Source: a virus (lineage: Duplodnaviria; Heunggongvirae; Uroviricota; Caudoviricetes). From it: a stretch of DNA of 64,000 nt. Shown in pieces: positions 3,297 through 62,164 of the stretch (the stretch's first letter is position 1; each line of letters begins with the position of its first letter). The notes below the pieces were generated by a model. That model was given only the letters and a program-made list of their open reading frames with translations. It was not told the DNA's origin and ran no database searches. Position numbers and translations under genes: made by a program. Where the stretch lies: IMG/VR virus record IMGVR_UViG_2571042445_000002, one strand, 5' to 3'.

Positions 3297-4088
3297 ATGG
3301 GCCGTTTTGATGAATGGCTTGCTGATGATGCAAGCCTGATGAGAAAGGAAACAGAACATGACAGCACGCAGAGAGAAGAGACAACGACGGTTGAAGCGAA
3401 TGAAGGAAGCACAACGGAAAATGGGAATGTCAGTGCAGGGCCATTCAGTATTCTGGAAGAGCACGCCGCCACCCAATCTAATAGCCATGATAATTGGCCT
3501 GATAATGCTGGTGACTCTGTTACGGAAGTGATTGAACCTGACATCGCTCCCCTACCGGCATCGCTCGCTAACAGAGAACCAAACCAGCAGCTTAAAACCC
3601 GATATAACGGACATAAAGCGTTCAACGACCAGATCCGCGCCGATTGGATGCTCATTATTGAATCAAGCCCTGACGCGTTCGAGGCGCTTTTATACCGCCC
3701 GGCTGATGGCACCTATGGCGTCGTAAACGATGAAACAGGTGAAGAGTCTTTCACGCAACTGGACAACAACCAGCGTGAGCTTACCTATCTGGAACCGGAA
3801 ATCGTATACGTCCTGGATAACCCGGACGGAAGGGATTCGTTTCATGCCATTGATGCCGATGGAGAACAGGATGGTCTTGCTGATGAAGTGCTAATCCTGC
3901 GTATTGCTGCAAACAACGTACCTGTTGGTTCAATCCTGGAATGGAACGAAGAAATGGCGAATGGCCTCGCCCGCCGCTGGTGGTACGTGCATCGAATCTT
4001 CAGCTACGGAACACAACACGTCGGCTCCCTTTATTACTGCATCCCGGCCAGGAACTTTGATACCACTCAAAACGGAGTGATCGAATGA
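3297..4088 (+). CDS. hypothetical phage protein (first gene of a 4-gene overlapping operon)
   Basis: ATG at 3297 preceded by GAGG at 3287-3290; stop overlaps next start (ATGA at 4085). Confidence 0.45.
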   Translation: MGRFDEWLADDASLMRKETEHDSTQREETTTVEANEGSTTENGNVSAGPFSILEEHAATQSNSHDNWPDNAGDSVTEVIEPDIAPLPASLANREPNQQLKTRYNGHKAFNDQIRADWMLIIESSPDAFEALLYRPADGTYGVVNDETGEESFTQLDNNQRELTYLEPEIVYVLDNPDGRDSFHAIDADGEQDGLADEVLILRIAANNVPVGSILEWNEEMANGLARRWWYVHRIFSYGTQHVGSLYYCIPARNFDTTQNGVIE

Positions 4089-4852
4089 CACCCAACAAAA
4101 CTCTCCTGTCCCGCATTGGCGAGTGGCAGACAACGCGTACTGGAAAATTCCAGACAACTGGTCTGGAAAGAGTGGATAACGCTTTTGCTACGCTAATCAG
4201 TGACATTTTTTCTGACGTAACGCTGGTGGAACCAGCAAAAGAAGAAAGGCGCTTTGCATCATTCCTGAGTCGCCCACCAGCGGAGCGTGTTTATGTTGCC
4301 CGTTTTGATAACGCGGTCGAGTTCCTTAAAGCGGTTCGCCGTGCTAATGCCGGGCAAGGGAGAAAGCCAGAGAATCCGAACATTAATCGCGATGCACTCC
4401 CTCTGATTAATATCTCGCGCTCAATGGATATCAGCTATATCAACAATGACCAGCAGATAGACCGCAAAAGCTGTGATCACTTCTGCGAACCTGGCAGCGG
4501 TATGCCTTTAGTAGCCCTGGAATACACCCAGGCAAATCTGACGTATGACGTTACATTAATGGCGACGGATAAGGCGACCATGAGTCTGATGTGTAATTCG
4601 CTAGGAGCACGTCTTCGCTTGATGGCAGGAACGCAGTTTGAAGCAACAACCCCGCTGGTACGAGTACCCGTCCCGCTAATTTGCGCGATTCAGGATGCTA
4701 AAGACATCAGTTTTACTGATGTTTCAGCCCCGATTGGGGAAGAGCGTATTTATGCTGCACAAACGGCAATTAGTGTTATAGCAGACGTGATCACCGCCTG
4801 GGAGCTGGACGCGAAACGAATTATTACTGAAACCTCTCTGAGAATGGGGTAA
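4085..4852 (+). CDS. hypothetical phage protein
   Basis: 255-aa ORF translationally coupled to flanking genes. Confidence 0.45.
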   Translation: MTPNKTLLSRIGEWQTTRTGKFQTTGLERVDNAFATLISDIFSDVTLVEPAKEERRFASFLSRPPAERVYVARFDNAVEFLKAVRRANAGQGRKPENPNINRDALPLINISRSMDISYINNDQQIDRKSCDHFCEPGSGMPLVALEYTQANLTYDVTLMATDKATMSLMCNSLGARLRLMAGTQFEATTPLVRVPVPLICAIQDAKDISFTDVSAPIGEERIYAAQTAISVIADVITAWELDAKRIITETSLRMG

Positions 4853-57684: not shown

Positions 57685-58893
57685 ATGAGTCAGCAAGTAG
57701 AATCATCAAGCCTGGAGATCATCTCAACCGCAATTGAAACGCTGCGGACACAAATCGCGCTTATACAGAAACGAAATCCGGGCGATGACCTGTCAAAGCG
57801 ACTGCATGAGAGCGTCATTGCCACTACAGATAACCTGGTGGCGGAAATCAACCAGCTCCTTGATGATGGGGCAGTTGATTACAATAAGCTGGTGGATCAG
57901 TTTGAGGAATATCAGCAAGCCGTTAATGATGGCTTGATCCGTTTTTCTCAAGTCACTGGTGTATCAGCGACAGTTGAAAGCCTGGGGGATGCAGTTAATC
58001 AATTTGCCGCGAATATGCGTAATGAGATCGGCAATCTGGAGGCGCGTCTTGAGCAGGCAAATACACTGCGCAAATCTGCTGAAGTCGATTTGAGTCGTTA
58101 CAAAAAAGACTATCCGCCAAGCCTGACAAAACGACTGGATGTTGCGGAGAAAGATAACCGCACGCTGAAAAGAGAGCGTCGGGAACTAAAAGAGCGTTTA
58201 ACCAAGCTAAATCAGCAATGCGTTGAGTATCAAGGCGAACTCGTCACACTGCGTAAAAAGTTAGCAGCGGCGCAGAGCATTATTGAAACATTGAAACGAG
58301 AGTGCTCAGAGCTTGGTCATGATCTGAATCGCGCCTGTGGCATGGGGCAAAGGCCAGAGACATTCCCGCTAATGTATGACGGAAGAGAAGCTATTGCCTA
58401 TATCCATGAGTTTCCGCATGGTCTGGTCGCGGAGACTGGGCAACGTGGCGAAGCGTTGCTGACGGCAAATTACCATCAGCAAATCAGAACCAGCCGCCTG
58501 CTGACGATGGATGTGATCCCGTCAGTATGGGGAACGCCGCTTTACTACCGAATTCCTGGCTTCGAAACTGACTGGAATACCGACATAGACGAATGTCTGG
58601 CAGATAAAATTATGGCGTACCTTGAAACGGATTTTCCACGCTTGCATCGCCGGATTATGGACTCTAAGGATGCACCGATCGACGAATTGAAAATGCGTCC
58701 AGAGACGTTGGAGGCAATCAAGCAGACTGAGTTTGATACAGTGTTCAGTGTGGCCTGCATTCCAAGCAGCTTTCATGAAAGCATTCCGTTCATGCAGGGC
58801 GATCGCCGTCAGGAAATAATTGATGCTTGCCGGGTATGGGCGAACGAGTGGGATAAGAAGAACGGTGGAGTTGAAAATCTTTACGGGAAATAA
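57685..58893 (+). CDS. hypothetical protein with N-terminal coiled-coil
   Basis: 402 aa; SD AAAGGGAAC. Confidence 0.45.
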   Translation: MSQQVESSSLEIISTAIETLRTQIALIQKRNPGDDLSKRLHESVIATTDNLVAEINQLLDDGAVDYNKLVDQFEEYQQAVNDGLIRFSQVTGVSATVESLGDAVNQFAANMRNEIGNLEARLEQANTLRKSAEVDLSRYKKDYPPSLTKRLDVAEKDNRTLKRERRELKERLTKLNQQCVEYQGELVTLRKKLAAAQSIIETLKRECSELGHDLNRACGMGQRPETFPLMYDGREAIAYIHEFPHGLVAETGQRGEALLTANYHQQIRTSRLLTMDVIPSVWGTPLYYRIPGFETDWNTDIDECLADKIMAYLETDFPRLHRRIMDSKDAPIDELKMRPETLEAIKQTEFDTVFSVACIPSSFHESIPFMQGDRRQEIIDACRVWANEWDKKNGGVENLYGK

Positions 58894-58930
58894 TGTATTA
58901 GAAAATTAAAATTGTTTTTCTAACATATTG
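58893..58930. promoter_or_regulatory. operator-like palindrome ATGTATTAGAAAATTAAAATTGTTTTTCTAACATATTG
   Basis: Half-sites ATTAGAAAA and TTTTCTAAC inverted around AATTAAAATTG; second copy AGTGTTAGAAAGTAAATTTT at 59044-59063. Confidence 0.5.
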
Positions 58931-58981
58931 ATTATGTAGTTAACTTAACATAGAATTTTTCGTGCTGGTGGGGAGCTTCCC

Positions 58982-59044
58982 ATGTCGCTTGCGGGTTTGA
59001 TAGTCACTTCATTGTCTTTCCCCACCAGCATCAAACAATTTTAA
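58982..59044 (+). CDS. 20-codon hydrophobic small ORF (MSLAGLIVTSLSFPTSIKQF) enclosed by an 11-bp hairpin; candidate type I toxin-like peptide
   Basis: Stem 58964-58974 / 59019-29 sequesters the GGGGAG SD-like element; not in ORF track (below 60 aa). Confidence 0.25.
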   Translation: MSLAGLIVTSLSFPTSIKQF

Positions 59045-59553
59045 GTGTTAGAAAGTAAATTTTAAGGTAAGGGAAAGCTCCGGCACCGTGCAAATACATG
59101 CCCGGCAGGTTTAGTGCGTAAAGTGGTTTCAGCGAGAGCATTTTACGGAGTAAACGACAGTGACTTGAGCCACGGAAGGTCTTTTTATGGTGTTCATTGA
59201 TGATGATCTGGCAGTGAGTATGTTAAGTGGGCCAGGCTGCATCGGGTCATCATCAGTGCACATCCTCAACGTTAAGGAGGCGCAGAGTTGGGTTTTCCTC
59301 TTATTTTGCTGACTCTGAGTCTCCTTAACGTTGCGGTAATGCACCTATGCGGATGTGGCCTTGCATTGTGTCTTGAAAGAATGGGGTAAGGCCGGGGATA
59401 TCCTCAGGGGGAGGCACCCCCGCTGCAACGAACAGCCACAGACGGCAGTCGAGTGATGGAAACGTGCAAAGACTTTAAACCTCGTTACGGCTGGCGTGGC
59501 AAACGCGACAACCGAGACAGAGCGGTGACGGGCGGAGAGAGAGCCGCTTCAAG

Positions 59554-59628
59554 ATAAAAGCCGACTATGGATTCCTTTCTGCGGGCCTTTGAAAGTGAAT
59601 CTTGCTCAGGCAGTCGGCTTTTATGTTG
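59554..59628 (+). terminator. hairpin ATAAAAGCCGACT ... AGTCGGCTTTTAT (13-bp stem, large loop) with U-tract
   Basis: Perfect 13-bp complementarity 59554-59566 / 59612-59624. Confidence 0.4.
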
Positions 59629-59753
59629 ATACGTAGCGATAACCGCGACAGGCGCGGCGGTAAGTATGGCGGGGTTATTCCTTCCCCGTTGAGGACACCG
59701 AGTTGCCAGGTTGACCATACGCCTAAGTGGCAATACCGCGAGTGGGATATTTG

Positions 59754-59776
59754 CCCACCTTCGGGTGGGTGTTTTT
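59754..59776 (+). terminator. rho-independent terminator CCCACC-TTCG-GGTGGG + TGTTTTTT
   Basis: UUCG tetraloop hairpin followed by T6 run; implies a + strand transcript across the ORF-poor region. Confidence 0.65.
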
Positions 59777-60238
59777 TCAGTGTTTTCGTCATGGTTAGCG
59801 ACTTTGCGGCGGTTTAGAACCCGACCATTAAAGTAAATGCAAACGATGATCTGATGATGGTAGCGGCCTAAGAAGCCTGACGCCACGGGGTATGAGTCGT
59901 CCCCCGTCAAAAAATCGACCGCAGAGTGTCCCCGTCTGTGTATTAGGGAACGGGGAGGCATAACAGGCAAGGGCGCTGGTGTGATTAACCAGATGAATGA
60001 GAAGGGTCAGGTCTTTCTGGTCAGCGCCCTTACCTGTTACGTCCCTCCCGCGTAACAGCCATTGGTTAATGGCTTTCTGGGATAATGTCTTGTAACGGGT
60101 ATATCCCGTCATGCTGAAGGCGCTAATCACGCTGGAAGCCAGGGTTATGCATCCCCTGTTACCGAATTGCAGCCAGGGCGCGGTGCGCCGAAAAGCATAC
60201 GGAGGTGGAAGCCCTCGCCGGAGACGTACCCGGCAAGT

Positions 60239-60313
60239 GATGGTGTAGCTCAGTGGTAGAGCAGTTGGCTGTTAACCAACTGGTCGGTGGTTCGAATCCA
60301 CTCACCATCGCCA
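60239..60313 (+). tRNA. tRNA-Asn (anticodon GTT)
   Basis: Cloverleaf parsed manually: acceptor GATGGTG/CACCATC, D-arm GCTC-AGTGGTA-GAGC, anticodon loop CTGTTAA, T-loop TTCGAAT, 3' CCA encoded. Confidence 0.8.
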
Positions 60314-60315
60314 AT

Positions 60316-60391
60316 GCCGGTTTAGCTCAGTTGGTAGAGCGCCTGCCTTGTAAGCAGGATGTCAGCGGTTCGAGTCCGTTAACCGGCACCA
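60316..60391 (+). tRNA. tRNA-Thr (anticodon TGT)
   Basis: Acceptor GCCGGTT/AACCGGC, anticodon stem CCTGC/GCAGG with loop CTTGTAA, T-loop TTCGAGT, CCA encoded; 2 nt after tRNA-Asn. Confidence 0.8.
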
Positions 60392-60392
60392 A

Positions 60393-60479
60393 CACAACAG
60401 GTAAGGGTATTTTGCGACGTCGGAGATCGCCGAGCTTGGCAGAGGGTTCGAATCCCTACGAAGTACCCTTACCGTTGTG
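60393..60479 (+). other. tRNA-like element: canonical T-loop (GGTTCGAATCC) and D-arm-like hairpin enclosed by a 16-17 bp inverted repeat; lacks anticodon arm (pseudo-tRNA or structured RNA)
   Basis: IR CACAACAGGTAAGGGTA 60393-60409 / TACCCTTACCGTTGTG 60464-60479; cannot be folded into a full cloverleaf. Confidence 0.3.
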
Positions 60480-60579
60480 ATGAATGCACAGGCTGATGTG
60501 CCGCAACTACAGTAGTGCGCGCTTTGCGGGGCTTGCTACAACCCTGTGTCGGAGTTCAGCACCGACCATCACAATCACT

Positions 60580-60666
60580 GGAGAGTAGGGAGCATGGTGC
60601 TCAAGCGGTCTTGAAAACCGTCCCATTGCGCAAGCGATGATGGTTCGATTCCATTACTCTCCGCCA
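60580..60666 (+). tRNA. atypical tRNA-like gene, possibly tRNA-Ser(TGA) with long variable arm and unusual D-arm
   Basis: Acceptor GGAGAGT/ACTCTCC + G + CCA; anticodon arm GCGGT-CTTGAAA-ACCGT; T-arm GATGG-TTCGATT-CCATT; D-arm atypical (5-bp stem, 3-nt loop). Confidence 0.35.
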
Positions 60667-60922
60667 GCGCAACGTTAAGAGTATTTGGCTAATTAAGCGA
60701 ATGCCGGAAGCAGAACCGGATCACCAAATGCTCTTACCATTGCGGTGAATGCGGCTAAGCGCACGCGGAACAGTTAAAACAGTAAAGGTGGTCTTTTTAC
60801 TGGCGTAACGAGAATCCATAAGTGATCCGGCGTTAATTGTTAACTGGTTAACGTCACCGGGAGGCACCCGGCACCGCAACCTAACAGCAATGGCGTTTTG
60901 TCTTAAAAGGTGGCTGCAAGTG

Positions 60923-61051
60923 ATGGATTTTTGGGCGTTTGCCGATAAAAACCCGGAGTGGACATTATTGTTTCTGCTGGTGGTTGCATACGGGGTAGAG
61001 CAAGCGGCAAAAGCCTTACGCGGTTCTGGCAAAAAGCGTAAGCGTAATTAA
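60923..61051 (+). CDS. 42-aa small membrane protein candidate (MDFWAFADKNPEWTLLFLLVVAYGVEQAAKALRGSGKKRKRN)
   Basis: Single hydrophobic helix plus basic C-terminus; SD AAGGTGG; located between tRNA-like genes; below ORF-track size cutoff. Confidence 0.3.
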   Translation: MDFWAFADKNPEWTLLFLLVVAYGVEQAAKALRGSGKKRKRN

Positions 61052-61060
61052 CAGTAATCT

Positions 61061-61136
61061 GGCCCTTTAGCTCAGTGGTTAGAGCGGGCGACTCATAATC
61101 GCACGGTCACCGGTTCAAGTCCGGTAGGGGCCACCA
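61061..61136 (+). tRNA. tRNA with CAT anticodon, ileX-like (tRNA-Ile2/lysidine type or elongator Met)
   Basis: GGCCCTTTAGCTCAGTGGTTAGAGCGGGCGACTCATAATCGC...GGTTCAAGTCCGGTAGGGGCCACCA closely resembles E. coli ileX as recalled. Confidence 0.8.
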
Positions 61137-61588
61137 CATTTGGTTGTAACACGGCGTATGGCACATGCGTCGTTAGCGGTCTGGTGTAGCTGTTAGGTAC
61201 CTTTTACTAACACTGCATGGGCACACCAGGTAGCCGGAATGTGCAAGCCCCGTTCATAGCGTCGGACTGCGGATTCACCATCCTGGCGATTCGGTGTGAC
61301 AGCCGGAAGAGCACGGCGTACAACAGGAAAAGGCGTTTAATTAGCGTGAGCGCCGTTTCCGTTGTGGTAATTGCGGCTATGCGCTCGTGACGAAGCCATT
61401 TTCATTCACTACGTTCTGATAAGTGTCGTCGCCGGGCGTGGCTAACCTGGCAGGTGGAGGCACCACCGCCACAACTCCTTTCAATTCATCATATAGCCGC
61501 TCAGGCTGTAACCCTTAATTAATACGAAGTTACGACGTCACTACCGGTTCAGCCGGGGGATAGTCGCGCGTGTAAAAAAGGAGACGTT

Positions 61589-62164
61589 ATGTTAACGGCG
61601 AACGATAACGCGTATTCAGAAGATGATCTCGTTTTGAGTGACTTTATAGGGCGACGAGAATGCTGGACGCAAAAGCGCGAGGAGCTTTATGCAGCGTTAG
61701 TTCGTAAAGGCGTCAACATCGAAACCGCACAGAACGGTGATATGACAGTGGTAAGTGTTGGACTGCACGGCGTAAGTGTGTCAGCAATCAATCATGAGCC
61801 GTACATTGCGTTATCCGAGTCGATGGTAAGGTTAGTTAAGTTCCTGAAGTACACAGAAGCGAATAACGTGATCATCGCCAAAAAGAACATCCCGTTCTCA
61901 TCGGCCTTTTACTGGATGATGAAGGGGCTTGATGCCCGGCGAACATCATGGCCTAAAGGGAGCTATATATCGATGCTCCGTGGCAGTGTTGGTAGCAAAG
62001 AAAAGCTCGTCGAATTCCTGCCGGAAGAGGCATTCGATATTGTTGAAGGTTGTGATGTGATGGTTATGCCTCGCCTGGTAATGATGAATGGGGATTTACA
62101 GGCGCAGACAGACTGGTTTGCAACTGGAGTTGATATTATCGCTACTGACTGGGAGGTTTTTTGA
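61589..62164 (+). CDS. protein with C-terminal DUF2829/Tad2-like domain (candidate anti-defence signal sponge)
   Basis: C-terminal half SAFYWMMKGLDARRTSWPKGSYI ... NGDLQAQTDWFATGVDIIATDWEVF fits the recalled DUF2829 pattern (ARRxxW ... DWEV); start may be internal. Confidence 0.4.
   Translation: MLTANDNAYSEDDLVLSDFIGRRECWTQKREELYAALVRKGVNIETAQNGDMTVVSVGLHGVSVSAINHEPYIALSESMVRLVKFLKYTEANNVIIAKKNIPFSSAFYWMMKGLDARRTSWPKGSYISMLRGSVGSKEKLVEFLPEEAFDIVEGCDVMVMPRLVMMNGDLQAQTDWFATGVDIIATDWEVF

Follow-up and report, generated by a model that had tools for sequence, protein, structure and literature searches.

Why should a stretch of phage DNA that is poor in open reading frames (ORFs) hold three hairpins that keep the same loop and differ in their stems? 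The question is raised by positions 58900-61600 of the tailed-phage record IMGVR_UViG_2571042445_000002, 64,000 nucleotides of which (the window, in what follows) were analysed. The hairpins are GGGGG-AGGCA-CCCCC at 59407-59421, CCGGG-AGGCA-CCCGG at 60857-60871 and GGTGG-AGGCA-CCACC at 61453-61467; a preliminary description of this DNA had located the second and third exactly and the first one base too low. On both strands of the window a perfect 5-bp Watson-Crick stem around AGGCA occurs exactly three times, always on the plus strand and always inside this region. Shuffles that preserve dinucleotide composition contain a mean of 0.107 such hairpins and 0 out of 300 reach three, and a pentaloop of any sequence recurs at least three times in 4 out of 100 shuffles. 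The three hairpins are not there by chance.

The answer begins with what surrounds them. Each AGGCA hairpin is the last helix (H4) of a structured RNA domain of 100-140 nt, and not the autonomous element for which it had been taken; the multi-helix domain to which it belongs falls into a family already catalogued as STnc100 (in Rfam) and PasD. The domain consists, in this order, of a closing helix (labelled P1, and called the closing helix here to keep it apart from phage P1), an 'AAU' junction, a bulged 5-bp hairpin with the loop UAWGC that is present in every copy (H1), a variable helix H2, a helix H3, and H4, which abuts the 3′ strand of the closing helix. The bases that come right after the first, second and third hairpins are GCTGCAAC, CACCGCAA(C) and GCCACAAC, and the 3′ strand next to the hairpins (GCUGCAACG, CACCGCAA and GCCACAAC, respectively) pairs with GUUGYGG, a segment located 90-130 nt upstream, to give 8-9 bp. 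Because of this pairing, the 'GC...CAAC tail' that had been remarked on, which is indeed present after each hairpin, is the 3′ strand of the closing helix rather than a tail of its own.

The window contains three clear copies of the domain and a divergent fourth, all on the sense strand of a long and largely non-coding operon. U1 occupies 59329-59430, with a closing helix of 59329-59337 paired to 59422-59430, H1 at 59341-59356, H2 at 59357-59393, H3 at 59394-59405 and the first hairpin as H4. U2, which represents a subtype called type A, occupies 60740-60879 (closing helix 60740-60747 with 60872-60879, H1 at 60751-60766, H3 at 60829-60855, the second hairpin as H4) and has a candidate pseudoknot between CAGUUAA and UUAACUG. 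In U3, at 61361-61475, the closing helix joins 61361-61368 to 61468-61475, H1 lies at 61373-61388, H2 is GACG/CGUC, H3 lies at 61431-61449 and H4 is the third hairpin, the candidate pseudoknot being AGCCA with UGGCU. The divergent copy U4, at 60474-60575, is closed by 60474-60482 with 60567-60575; its equivalent of H4, at 60548-60566, reads GTCGG-AGTTCAGCA-CCGAC (in RNA, GUCGG-AGUUCAGCA-CCGAC), and the loop of this hairpin is complementary to that of its own H1 (GCUGA/UCAGC). U4 ends 4 nt before tRNA-Ser, of which it forms the leader.

If these domains are related by structure, a model trained on relatives found elsewhere should recover them. Type-A relatives of U2 were gathered from IMG/VR by an exact pattern for the H1 region, and the alignment of 74 distinct sequences (A1) gave a covariance model, R1, which was built only from type-A copies and did not have U1 among its sequences. 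A second model, R2, came from 101 matches of all subtypes (alignment A3, with 95 distinct rows and fitted to the model). With filters off, the best three R1 matches in the window are U2 (135 bits), U3 (36.1 bits, expectation value E 5.6e-9) and U1 (29.9 bits, E 3.8e-7), the remaining ones scoring 14 bits or less and being generic hairpins. R1 gives U4 only 6.5 bits, and R2, whose training set did not contain U4, places it fourth in the window (60462-60589, 20.3 bits, E ~3e-4). A covariance-model search, one of the checks suggested earlier, returns all three copies and adds one.

The covariation is extensive. In A1, paired cells make up 96.3% and double changes occur at 22 pairs, values that none of 500 shuffles reaches, and when the 3′ partners are slid by 1-3 columns as a control the pairing drops to 32-38%. 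Across the 95 distinct rows of A3, H4 and H1 are paired in 100% of cases, the inner 9 bp of the closing helix in 99.5% and H3 in 95.7%. Double changes affect three of the five pairs of H4: the outer three vary (GC/CG/UA, GC/CG/AU and UA/GC), the two G-C pairs next to the loop are invariant, and stems such as GGGGG, CCGGG, CCUGG, GGUGG, UCUGG and CAUGG are each found with the matching 3′ strand. The invariant core of H4 is GGAGGCACC; phage P1's own H4 has the loop AAGCA. RNAalifold, run on 57 U3-type homologues, independently predicts the closing helix, H1, H2, H3 and H4. The covariation supports the closing helix, H1, H3 and H4, so that the earlier proposal of a conserved RNA structure, made from three copies with a constant loop and compensating stem changes, holds across a much larger set, and with it the expectation that the hairpin would be conserved in related sequences.

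Which strand carries the structure is also clear. G-U pairs are frequent, and model scores are 165-172 bits in the sense orientation as opposed to 30-35 in antisense, for which reasons the structure is read on the transcribed strand. This bears on the view that the repeats are selfish or recombinogenic DNA (resembling miniature inverted-repeat or palindrome-associated transposable elements, or marking module boundaries in mosaic phages), with hairpins that are mere by-products of terminal inverted repeats. Such DNA would explain why the units are multi-copy, why inverted repeats of up to 21 bp stand at their ends and RCAAC direct repeats on either side of them, and why entire units distinguish phage P1, Escherichia phage D6 and the window from one another, the junctions falling within a conserved GTTGTG(A/G)TGAA segment. 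However, G-U pairs would be A-C mismatches on the opposite strand, the copies are without exception encoded on the transcribed strand, at a constant position with respect to terminator and ORF, and compensatory changes preserve internal helices and a pseudoknot, for which mobility would not select; moreover, at the loci examined every copy is in a phage or prophage context. We find this view scarcely credible. Hairpin promoters of the N4 type and single-stranded DNA elements were dropped in view of the strand-specific G-U pairs and of the match to an RNA family, and the likeness of CAAC/GTTG to integron attC sites or to IS200/IS605-like ends is superficial, there being no integrase or TnpA context.

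Two tertiary contacts are suggested. The segment just past H1 (J) can form 6-8 bp with the H3 loop in each of seven subtypes, with sequences that are unrelated from one subtype to another (CAGUUAA/UUAACUG, UGGUUAU/AUAACCA, AAGGCUGG/UCAGCCUU, AUCAGC/GCUGAU, CUGGUG/CACCGG and AGCCAU/GUGGCU), and non-cognate combinations mostly give 2-5 bp. Among the 25 unique combinations of J and loop in the U3 type, 19 are fully paired (AGCCA with UGGCU, GGCCA with UGGCC or UGGUC, GACCA with UGGUC), which 3 out of 2000 permutations equal. A pseudoknot between J and the H3 loop is likely. A contact between the loops of H1 and H4 is a lead at this point, their complementarity amounting to 5-6 bp in the U4 type and to only 2-4 bp in AGGCA-type copies.

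A second element accompanies the domain. Upstream of each of the four copies in the window lies a long hairpin (LH) with 19-24 predicted bp, in agreement with the long stems that had been noticed in the region, and in 4/4 cases the 3′ strand of the long hairpin overlaps the 5′ strand of the closing helix by 4-6 nt. LH1, at 59267-59333 (15 + 9 bp, with the base CAACG/CGUUG), shares 5 nt with the closing helix of U1; LH4, at 60393-60479 (6 + 15 bp), shares 6 nt with that of U4; LH2, at 60668-60744 (5 + 12 bp and inner stems), shares 4 nt with that of U2; and LH3, at 61319-61366 (6 + 5 + 8 bp), shares 6 nt with that of U3, all on the plus strand. In consequence of its position, GUUGY can pair either with the upstream RCAAC, at the base of the long hairpin, or with the downstream RCAAC, in the closing helix. 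The predicted duplexes (24 bp in LH1, 21 in LH4, 17 plus inner stems in LH2 and 19 in LH3) have the length of an RNase III signal, i.e., about 20 bp or more, and so do the closing helices of lambdoid copies, which reach 21-22 contiguous bp.

This two-part layout is not peculiar to the window. In many unrelated viral contigs a long hairpin with strongly covarying stems immediately precedes the U3-type domain, and the same order is seen between tR′ and S of phage lambda, in the late leader, where (at ~1424-1570 of our record L004) a long hairpin ACAACAGGTAAGAGCA...TGCTCTTTCCGTTGT is followed by a 9-bp closed helix GTTGTGCTG...CAGCACAAC. The loop of LH2 contains a 41-nt stretch 97.6% identical to that lambda leader, and the same 41-mer is present in rV5-like myoviruses. 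Located between tRNA-Thr and U4, LH4 includes a canonical T-arm sequence, GGGTTCGAATCCC (60444-60456), as well as an extended acceptor-like stem; it resembles a tRNA remnant, is not called by ARAGORN, and is conserved in D6 and P1.

Might the domains themselves, then, be tRNA-derived or tRNA-like, serving as extra processing signals for RNase P-type enzymes in a tRNA operon? They adjoin tRNA genes in P1-like and lambdoid phages, their five-helix layout with a 5-bp last hairpin against the closing helix is that of a class II tRNA in outline, the complementarity of the H1 and H4 loops in the U4 type recalls D-loop/T-loop contacts, and the T-arm sequence within LH4 is a true one. Nonetheless, ARAGORN and the Rfam tRNA model call only the four real tRNAs, the H4 loop has 5 nt and no T-loop consensus, the closing helix has 8-22 bp instead of 7, no CCA or discriminator is conserved past it, and the loop complementarity shrinks to 2-4 bp in AGGCA-type copies. 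A tRNA-like nature is highly improbable on these grounds.

Several familiar elements were considered for the AGGCA hairpin and rejected. The boxB hairpins of lambda nut sites also combine a 5-bp stem with a 5-nt loop, and their stems also covary between copies, but their loop is the GNRA-like GAAAA/GAAGA bound by N, whereas the AGGCA hairpin is situated inside a larger domain; besides, neither CGCTCTT nor GCTCTTTA (boxA) occurs on either strand of 58900-61600. Intrinsic terminators were discarded, as no U-run lies behind any of the three hairpins and the terminator scan does not list them. A Shine-Dalgarno sequence sequestered in H4 (GGAGG) is at variance with starts that are 30-114 nt away and with the phage P1 variant AAGCA, which destroys the Shine-Dalgarno-like motif; a T-box-like specifier loop is at variance with a loop that is nearly invariant and not matched to the tRNAs; and a CsrA site would display GGA in the loop, which is not the case here.

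What the domain does resemble is STnc100, an sRNA that Salmonella and E. coli carry in prophages. The Rfam model (RF02076) matches U2 over model positions 31-147 of 206 with 40.8 bits, a score that does not reach the gathering threshold of 47, and it does not report U1, U3 or U4 even at E<=10; for comparison, it gives 165 and 136 bits to bona fide copies in another of our records (L021) and 34.4 to the leader of dicB in the Qin prophage of Escherichia coli K-12, discussed below. The consensus of RF02076 holds CACCGGGAGGCACCCGGCACC within a 7-bp closing helix. U1, U2 and U3 have the core architecture of STnc100, in which a closing helix encloses H1, H3 and a terminal GGGAGGCACCC hairpin that abuts its 3′ strand, and shared details include the 'AAU', complementarity of the H3 loop to the stretch that comes after H1, and the very hairpin CCGGG-AGGCA-CCCGG next to the closing helix. 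Both also adjoin phage tRNA genes, the bona fide STnc100 copies coming directly after three of them in a lambdoid prophage. STnc100 differs in that it stands alone, as a unit of ~200 nt that is terminated by a signal of its own ~25 nt past the domain, whereas the window copies are embedded in an operon.

PasD1 and PasD2 (EcOnc13), of enteropathogenic and enterohaemorrhagic E. coli (EPEC and EHEC), are built on the same plan, with a closing helix (GCAUGGUG/GCCAUGC), AAU, H1, H3 and a 6-bp pseudoknot AUGAUC/GAUCAU, and the neighbourhood of PasD1 has a DUF3927 (TciB-like) gene, as does the P1-type tci cluster. PasD1 differs by its own promoter, a 3′ tail that bears the seed, a terminator, and an H4 of which GGGAGGC is left and the 3′ strand is missing; it escapes detection by R1. 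In the prophage PP4 of EPEC E2348/69 (862-1233 of our record L323), PasD1 lies directly after the DUF3927 gene and before holin and lysozyme genes, and the hexamers TTGACT-17-ATTAAA put its start at the first base of the closing helix. Its published 5′ end is position 1060260 of NC_011601 (supplement of PMC8550237), and this mapped end coincides with that same base. Zhu, Shabalina and Storz have suggested that PasD and STnc100 share an origin (bioRxiv 10.64898/2026.05.13.724894). Judged by sequence and predicted architecture, the window domains are operon-embedded, multi-copy and divergent members of this STnc100/PasD family of temperate-phage RNAs, of which only the stand-alone small RNA (sRNA) forms had been catalogued previously.

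Given such relatives, the domains may be scaffolds of trans-acting, Hfq-dependent sRNAs, and the module an sRNA gene or a precursor excised from the operon, which would regulate host or phage mRNAs or sponge other sRNAs and would have no task at the downstream cistron. PasD1 and PasD2 are Northern-verified, Hfq-stabilised sRNAs with targets found by RIL-seq (PMC8550237), directly behind the domain of STnc100 and of many U3-type copies come a single-stranded tail (CUGUGUGUAGUCUU) and an intrinsic terminator, and U1 itself is followed by ~190 conserved non-coding nt and a terminator-like hairpin. Yet the mapped seed of PasD1, UGUGAG, is in the 3′ tail and outside the domain (a first guess, that it lay in the 5′ strand of the closing helix, was abandoned upon inspection of the PasD1 sequence), the conserved part of the domain is paired or buried and offers no accessible seed, and U2, U3, U4 and ~97% of type-A copies precede an ORF or a tRNA, with no terminator. 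A trans-acting role plausibly fits the terminator-bearing relatives and not the copies linked to ORFs and tRNAs, and we consider it rather unlikely as an account of the domains in general.

The ORF-linked copies are best seen in type A. This subtype is present in 4633 of 5426 complete E. coli genomes (~85%), and the domain also occurs in lambdoid prophages, Shiga toxin (Stx) phages and P1-like phage-plasmids. Two places match it in the record of K-12 MG1655. In the Qin prophage of that strain the domain, with a closing helix of 21 bp, fills the gap from the DicF terminator to the ribosome-binding site of dicB (2498-2652 of our record L126), a gap that carries no annotated feature and of whose domain no description or test was found in the literature, two RNase III mapping studies mentioning dicF only as a citation; U2 is 77.7% identical to this segment. 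At 116 of 120 type-A loci an ORF on the same strand starts ~15-80 nt past the closing helix, nearly always within 50 nt; these ORFs encode DicB (44 loci, Pfam-confirmed), a Kil-like protein of 73 aa (34 loci), hydrophobic peptides of 35-47 aa, or TerB/TciA. In lambdoid copies a T-run terminator is found immediately upstream.

What follows the domain in the window differs from copy to copy, namely a conserved non-coding tail after U1, tRNA-Ser after U4, a TciC-like peptide and a tRNA after U2, and a Tad2-like ORF after U3. The preliminary description had pointed to two AGTGATGGA start contexts, which are located 30 nt past the first hairpin and 46 nt past the second. The latter is a real start: it opens a small hydrophobic TciC-like ORF (MDFWAFADKNPEWTLLFLLVV..., 42/43 aa, 60920-61051, plus strand) with homologues in D6 and in P1 (tciC). 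The former opens a 34-aa ORF (59453-59557, plus strand) that has no Pfam match, is not conserved and was set aside as a real gene on account of its frequent in-frame TGA, which falls on codon 5 in ~10 of 25 homologous sequences, the surrounding ~190 nt being highly conserved as nucleotide sequence. The ORF is probably not a gene, to judge from this pattern, and the stretch probably makes up a non-coding tail, belonging to an sRNA-like unit whose end is the long terminator-like hairpin of 59549-59629 (plus strand; 18-nt arms, 94% complementary, then UUUUAU). Past U3, the 191-aa ORF at 61589-62164 (plus strand) contains a Tad2-like (Thoeris anti-defence 2) domain (PF11195, residues 103-190, E 4.4e-10) and starts 114 nt after the domain, just as the same ORF starts 112-113 nt past U3-type domains at 27 other loci. 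U2, U3 and U4 have no intrinsic terminator of their own after the domain, where an ORF or tRNA comes next without any T-run, and a terminator-like hairpin is found downstream of U1 alone, at a distance of 120-200 nt.

The proximity of starts makes it tempting to regard the domain as a cis-regulatory sensor, riboswitch-like or responsive to a protein or an RNA, that gates dicB, kil, the membrane peptides and tciA/C. In favour of such a sensor, the fold is complex, multi-helix and probably pseudoknotted, its loop and junction nucleotides are invariant, most copies lie 15-50 nt before the start codons of toxic small genes, lambdoid copies come directly after an intrinsic terminator, and the alternative pairing of GUUGY is switch-like. 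But the same domain also precedes a tRNA, the Tad2-like gene at a distance of 114 nt and sRNA tails; its distance to the ribosome-binding site varies, with no consistent expression platform; and the sequences of H2 and H3 are swapped wholesale between subtypes, unlike those of a ligand pocket. We therefore think a sensor distinctly unlikely.

The reading to which we lean, although we put it at a little less than an even chance, is that the long hairpin and the domain form a module processed by RNase III, which leaves a compact 5′ domain on the downstream RNA and thereby insulates or stabilises the payload. RNase III would cut a polycistronic transcript in the long hairpin, and the tRNAs would be sites for RNase P and RNase E. 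The cut in the long hairpin would free GUUGY, the closing helix would form, and the downstream RNA (DicF, a tRNA precursor, the tail of an sRNA, or an mRNA that encodes a toxic or anti-defence protein) would start with a compact, pseudoknotted 5′-terminal domain. This domain would insulate cistrons, protect 5′ ends and stabilise the payload RNA, and could tune the use of a nearby ribosome-binding site. H4, with its invariant GGAGGCACC, would be the structural core, stacked coaxially on the closing helix and probably in loop-loop contact with H1, or would contact a protein. Among the roles offered earlier for the hairpin, '5′ leader' and 'processing site' fit the contexts best, with the qualification that the likely processing site is the long hairpin upstream and not the AGGCA hairpin; 'protein-binding hairpin' is a possible third.

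The proposed order of events, a cut by RNase III in the long hairpin and then closure of the domain, is drawn from two 5′ ends. One is that of PasD1, at the first base of the closing helix. The other comes from the dicBF operon of Qin, where a 190-nt DicF species depends on RNase III and is lost in delta-rnc (Ragunathan et al., bioRxiv 10.1101/2023.04.14.536235); its 5′ end, inferred from its length, would lie 2-5 nt upstream of GUUGUGGC, in the 3′ strand of a predicted long hairpin of 22 bp. The window resembles this operon by its U2 domain, like the dicF-dicB leader, and by a segment at 59643-59739 (plus strand) that is 91.8% identical to the one before DicF and is annotated in P1 as 'dicF-like region'; in Qin its counterpart is the 5′ part of the RNase III-generated 190-nt species. 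It differs in that neither DicF nor dicB is present: Rfam finds no DicF match in the window. In the place of DicF stands an unrelated terminator hairpin at 59752-59777.

Phage intercistronic RNase III signals, such as those of the T7 early region, the lambda N leader and sib, and 5′ stabiliser stem-loops of the ompA type are known to insulate cistrons and to protect 5′ ends. Like the module proposed here, these are long imperfect duplexes between cistrons of a polycistronic phage transcript and leave processed ends base-paired; they differ in being simple hairpins, whereas here a conserved, pseudoknotted multi-helix domain stands alongside, and no sequence relationship to them is claimed.

A number of observations weigh against this reading. 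A plain hairpin would suffice for processing or for 5′ protection, and the core has GGAGGCACC, the H1 loop and a pseudoknot; since it is thus more elaborate than either task needs, the domain may have an additional function, with a specific partner. RNase III cleavage at the long hairpins of the window is put forward from predicted duplexes and by analogy with Qin, and the closing helices of the window, at only 8-9 bp, would not be RNase III substrates themselves. Not every member of the family starts at the closing helix, as the RF02076 model begins ~30 nt upstream of it, and H4 must be dispensable in some members, as PasD1 has lost its 3′ half. As regards the structure, free-energy z-scores are modest (-1.5 to -2.8), and sampling by exact H1 patterns, or an alignment fitted to its model as A3 is, inflates the apparent conservation, notably that of H1, and the fit itself. 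The comparison of pseudoknots across subtypes is not clean, because some non-cognate combinations pair well (J of subtype C forms 7-8 bp with the loop of subtype B, and D1 and D3 pair with each other), and the 5′ strand of the type-A pseudoknot can pair inside H2 instead.

The setting of these modules is that of a known phage group. The region belongs to a P1-like phage or phage-plasmid, and its closest record is Escherichia phage D6 (91% identity across 86% of 58900-61600), followed by P7, P1 and relatives. The ORF-poor region is bounded by pmgS (57685-58893) and the 191-aa ORF, and the homologous stretch of P1 is the long leader of the C1-controlled ban operon, with the annotations 'dicF-like region', tRNAs and tciA/B/C; a literature search on the ban operon brought up nothing relevant. 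Directly 3′ of pmgS, a sigma-70 promoter-like site TTGATT-17-TAGAAT (58928-58956, plus strand), with the same hexamers in D6, is a candidate promoter for the entire ORF-poor operon. It is bracketed, together with a hairpin with 17-bp arms at 58958-59035, by a 20-nt inverted repeat (58906-58925 and 59046-59065) that contains TGTTAGAAA and is also found in D6; by analogy with the C1 operators at Pban in P1, this repeat may be an operator pair.

Two intrinsic terminators had been reported in the region. One has an 8-bp stem at 59752-59771 followed by UUUUUU (59752-59777, plus strand) and is listed by the terminator scan; the other corresponds to the long hairpin of 59549-59629 with its TTTTAT, which is terminator-like. 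Further on come four plus-strand tRNA genes, identified by tRNA search: tRNA-Asn(GTT) at 60239-60313, tRNA-Thr(TGT) at 60316-60391, tRNA-Ser(TGA) at 60580-60666 and a tRNA with a CAT anticodon at 61061-61136, which ARAGORN labels tRNA-Met and whose P1 homologue is annotated as tRNA-Ile2 (ileX-like, lysidine-dependent). The approach to tRNA-Asn (59950-60238) consists of a further long hairpin of 104 nt, LH0 (59950-60053, plus strand), and ~185 nt of conserved ORF-free sequence; no family domain is detectable after LH0 by R1 or R2, which give generic-hairpin scores only. In P1, plp and upl (3744-4313 of our record L002, minus strand) run antisense over tRNA-Thr and two modules of long hairpin and domain, and these two ORFs may be mis-annotated. 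The plp/upl stretch is missing in the window, apparently through recombination between two GTTGTG(A/G)TGAA segments.

A wider reading is more doubtful, and we offer it as a conjecture. The long hairpin and the domain would form a widespread modular RNA cassette of temperate enterobacterial phages, in which the GGAGGCACC domain binds a specific partner and controls toxic or anti-defence payloads, including dicB and kil. Its range may extend over the early-left and late operons of lambdoid phages, the late leader of lambda and the ban/tRNA operon of P1-type phages, and the partner may be a host or phage protein, a ribonuclease or a ligand. The same core, with its covarying fold and always in the company of a long hairpin of the RNase III type, does recur as a 5′ module before genes for cell-division inhibitors and small membrane peptides, before tRNAs and before an anti-defence gene, which turns what was a vague 'prophage sRNA family' into a testable idea on how phages process and control the transcripts of their accessory genes. 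Were the cassette real, the dicF-dicB leader of E. coli K-12 would be a tractable model for it, in a prophage, Qin, that laboratories already have in common.

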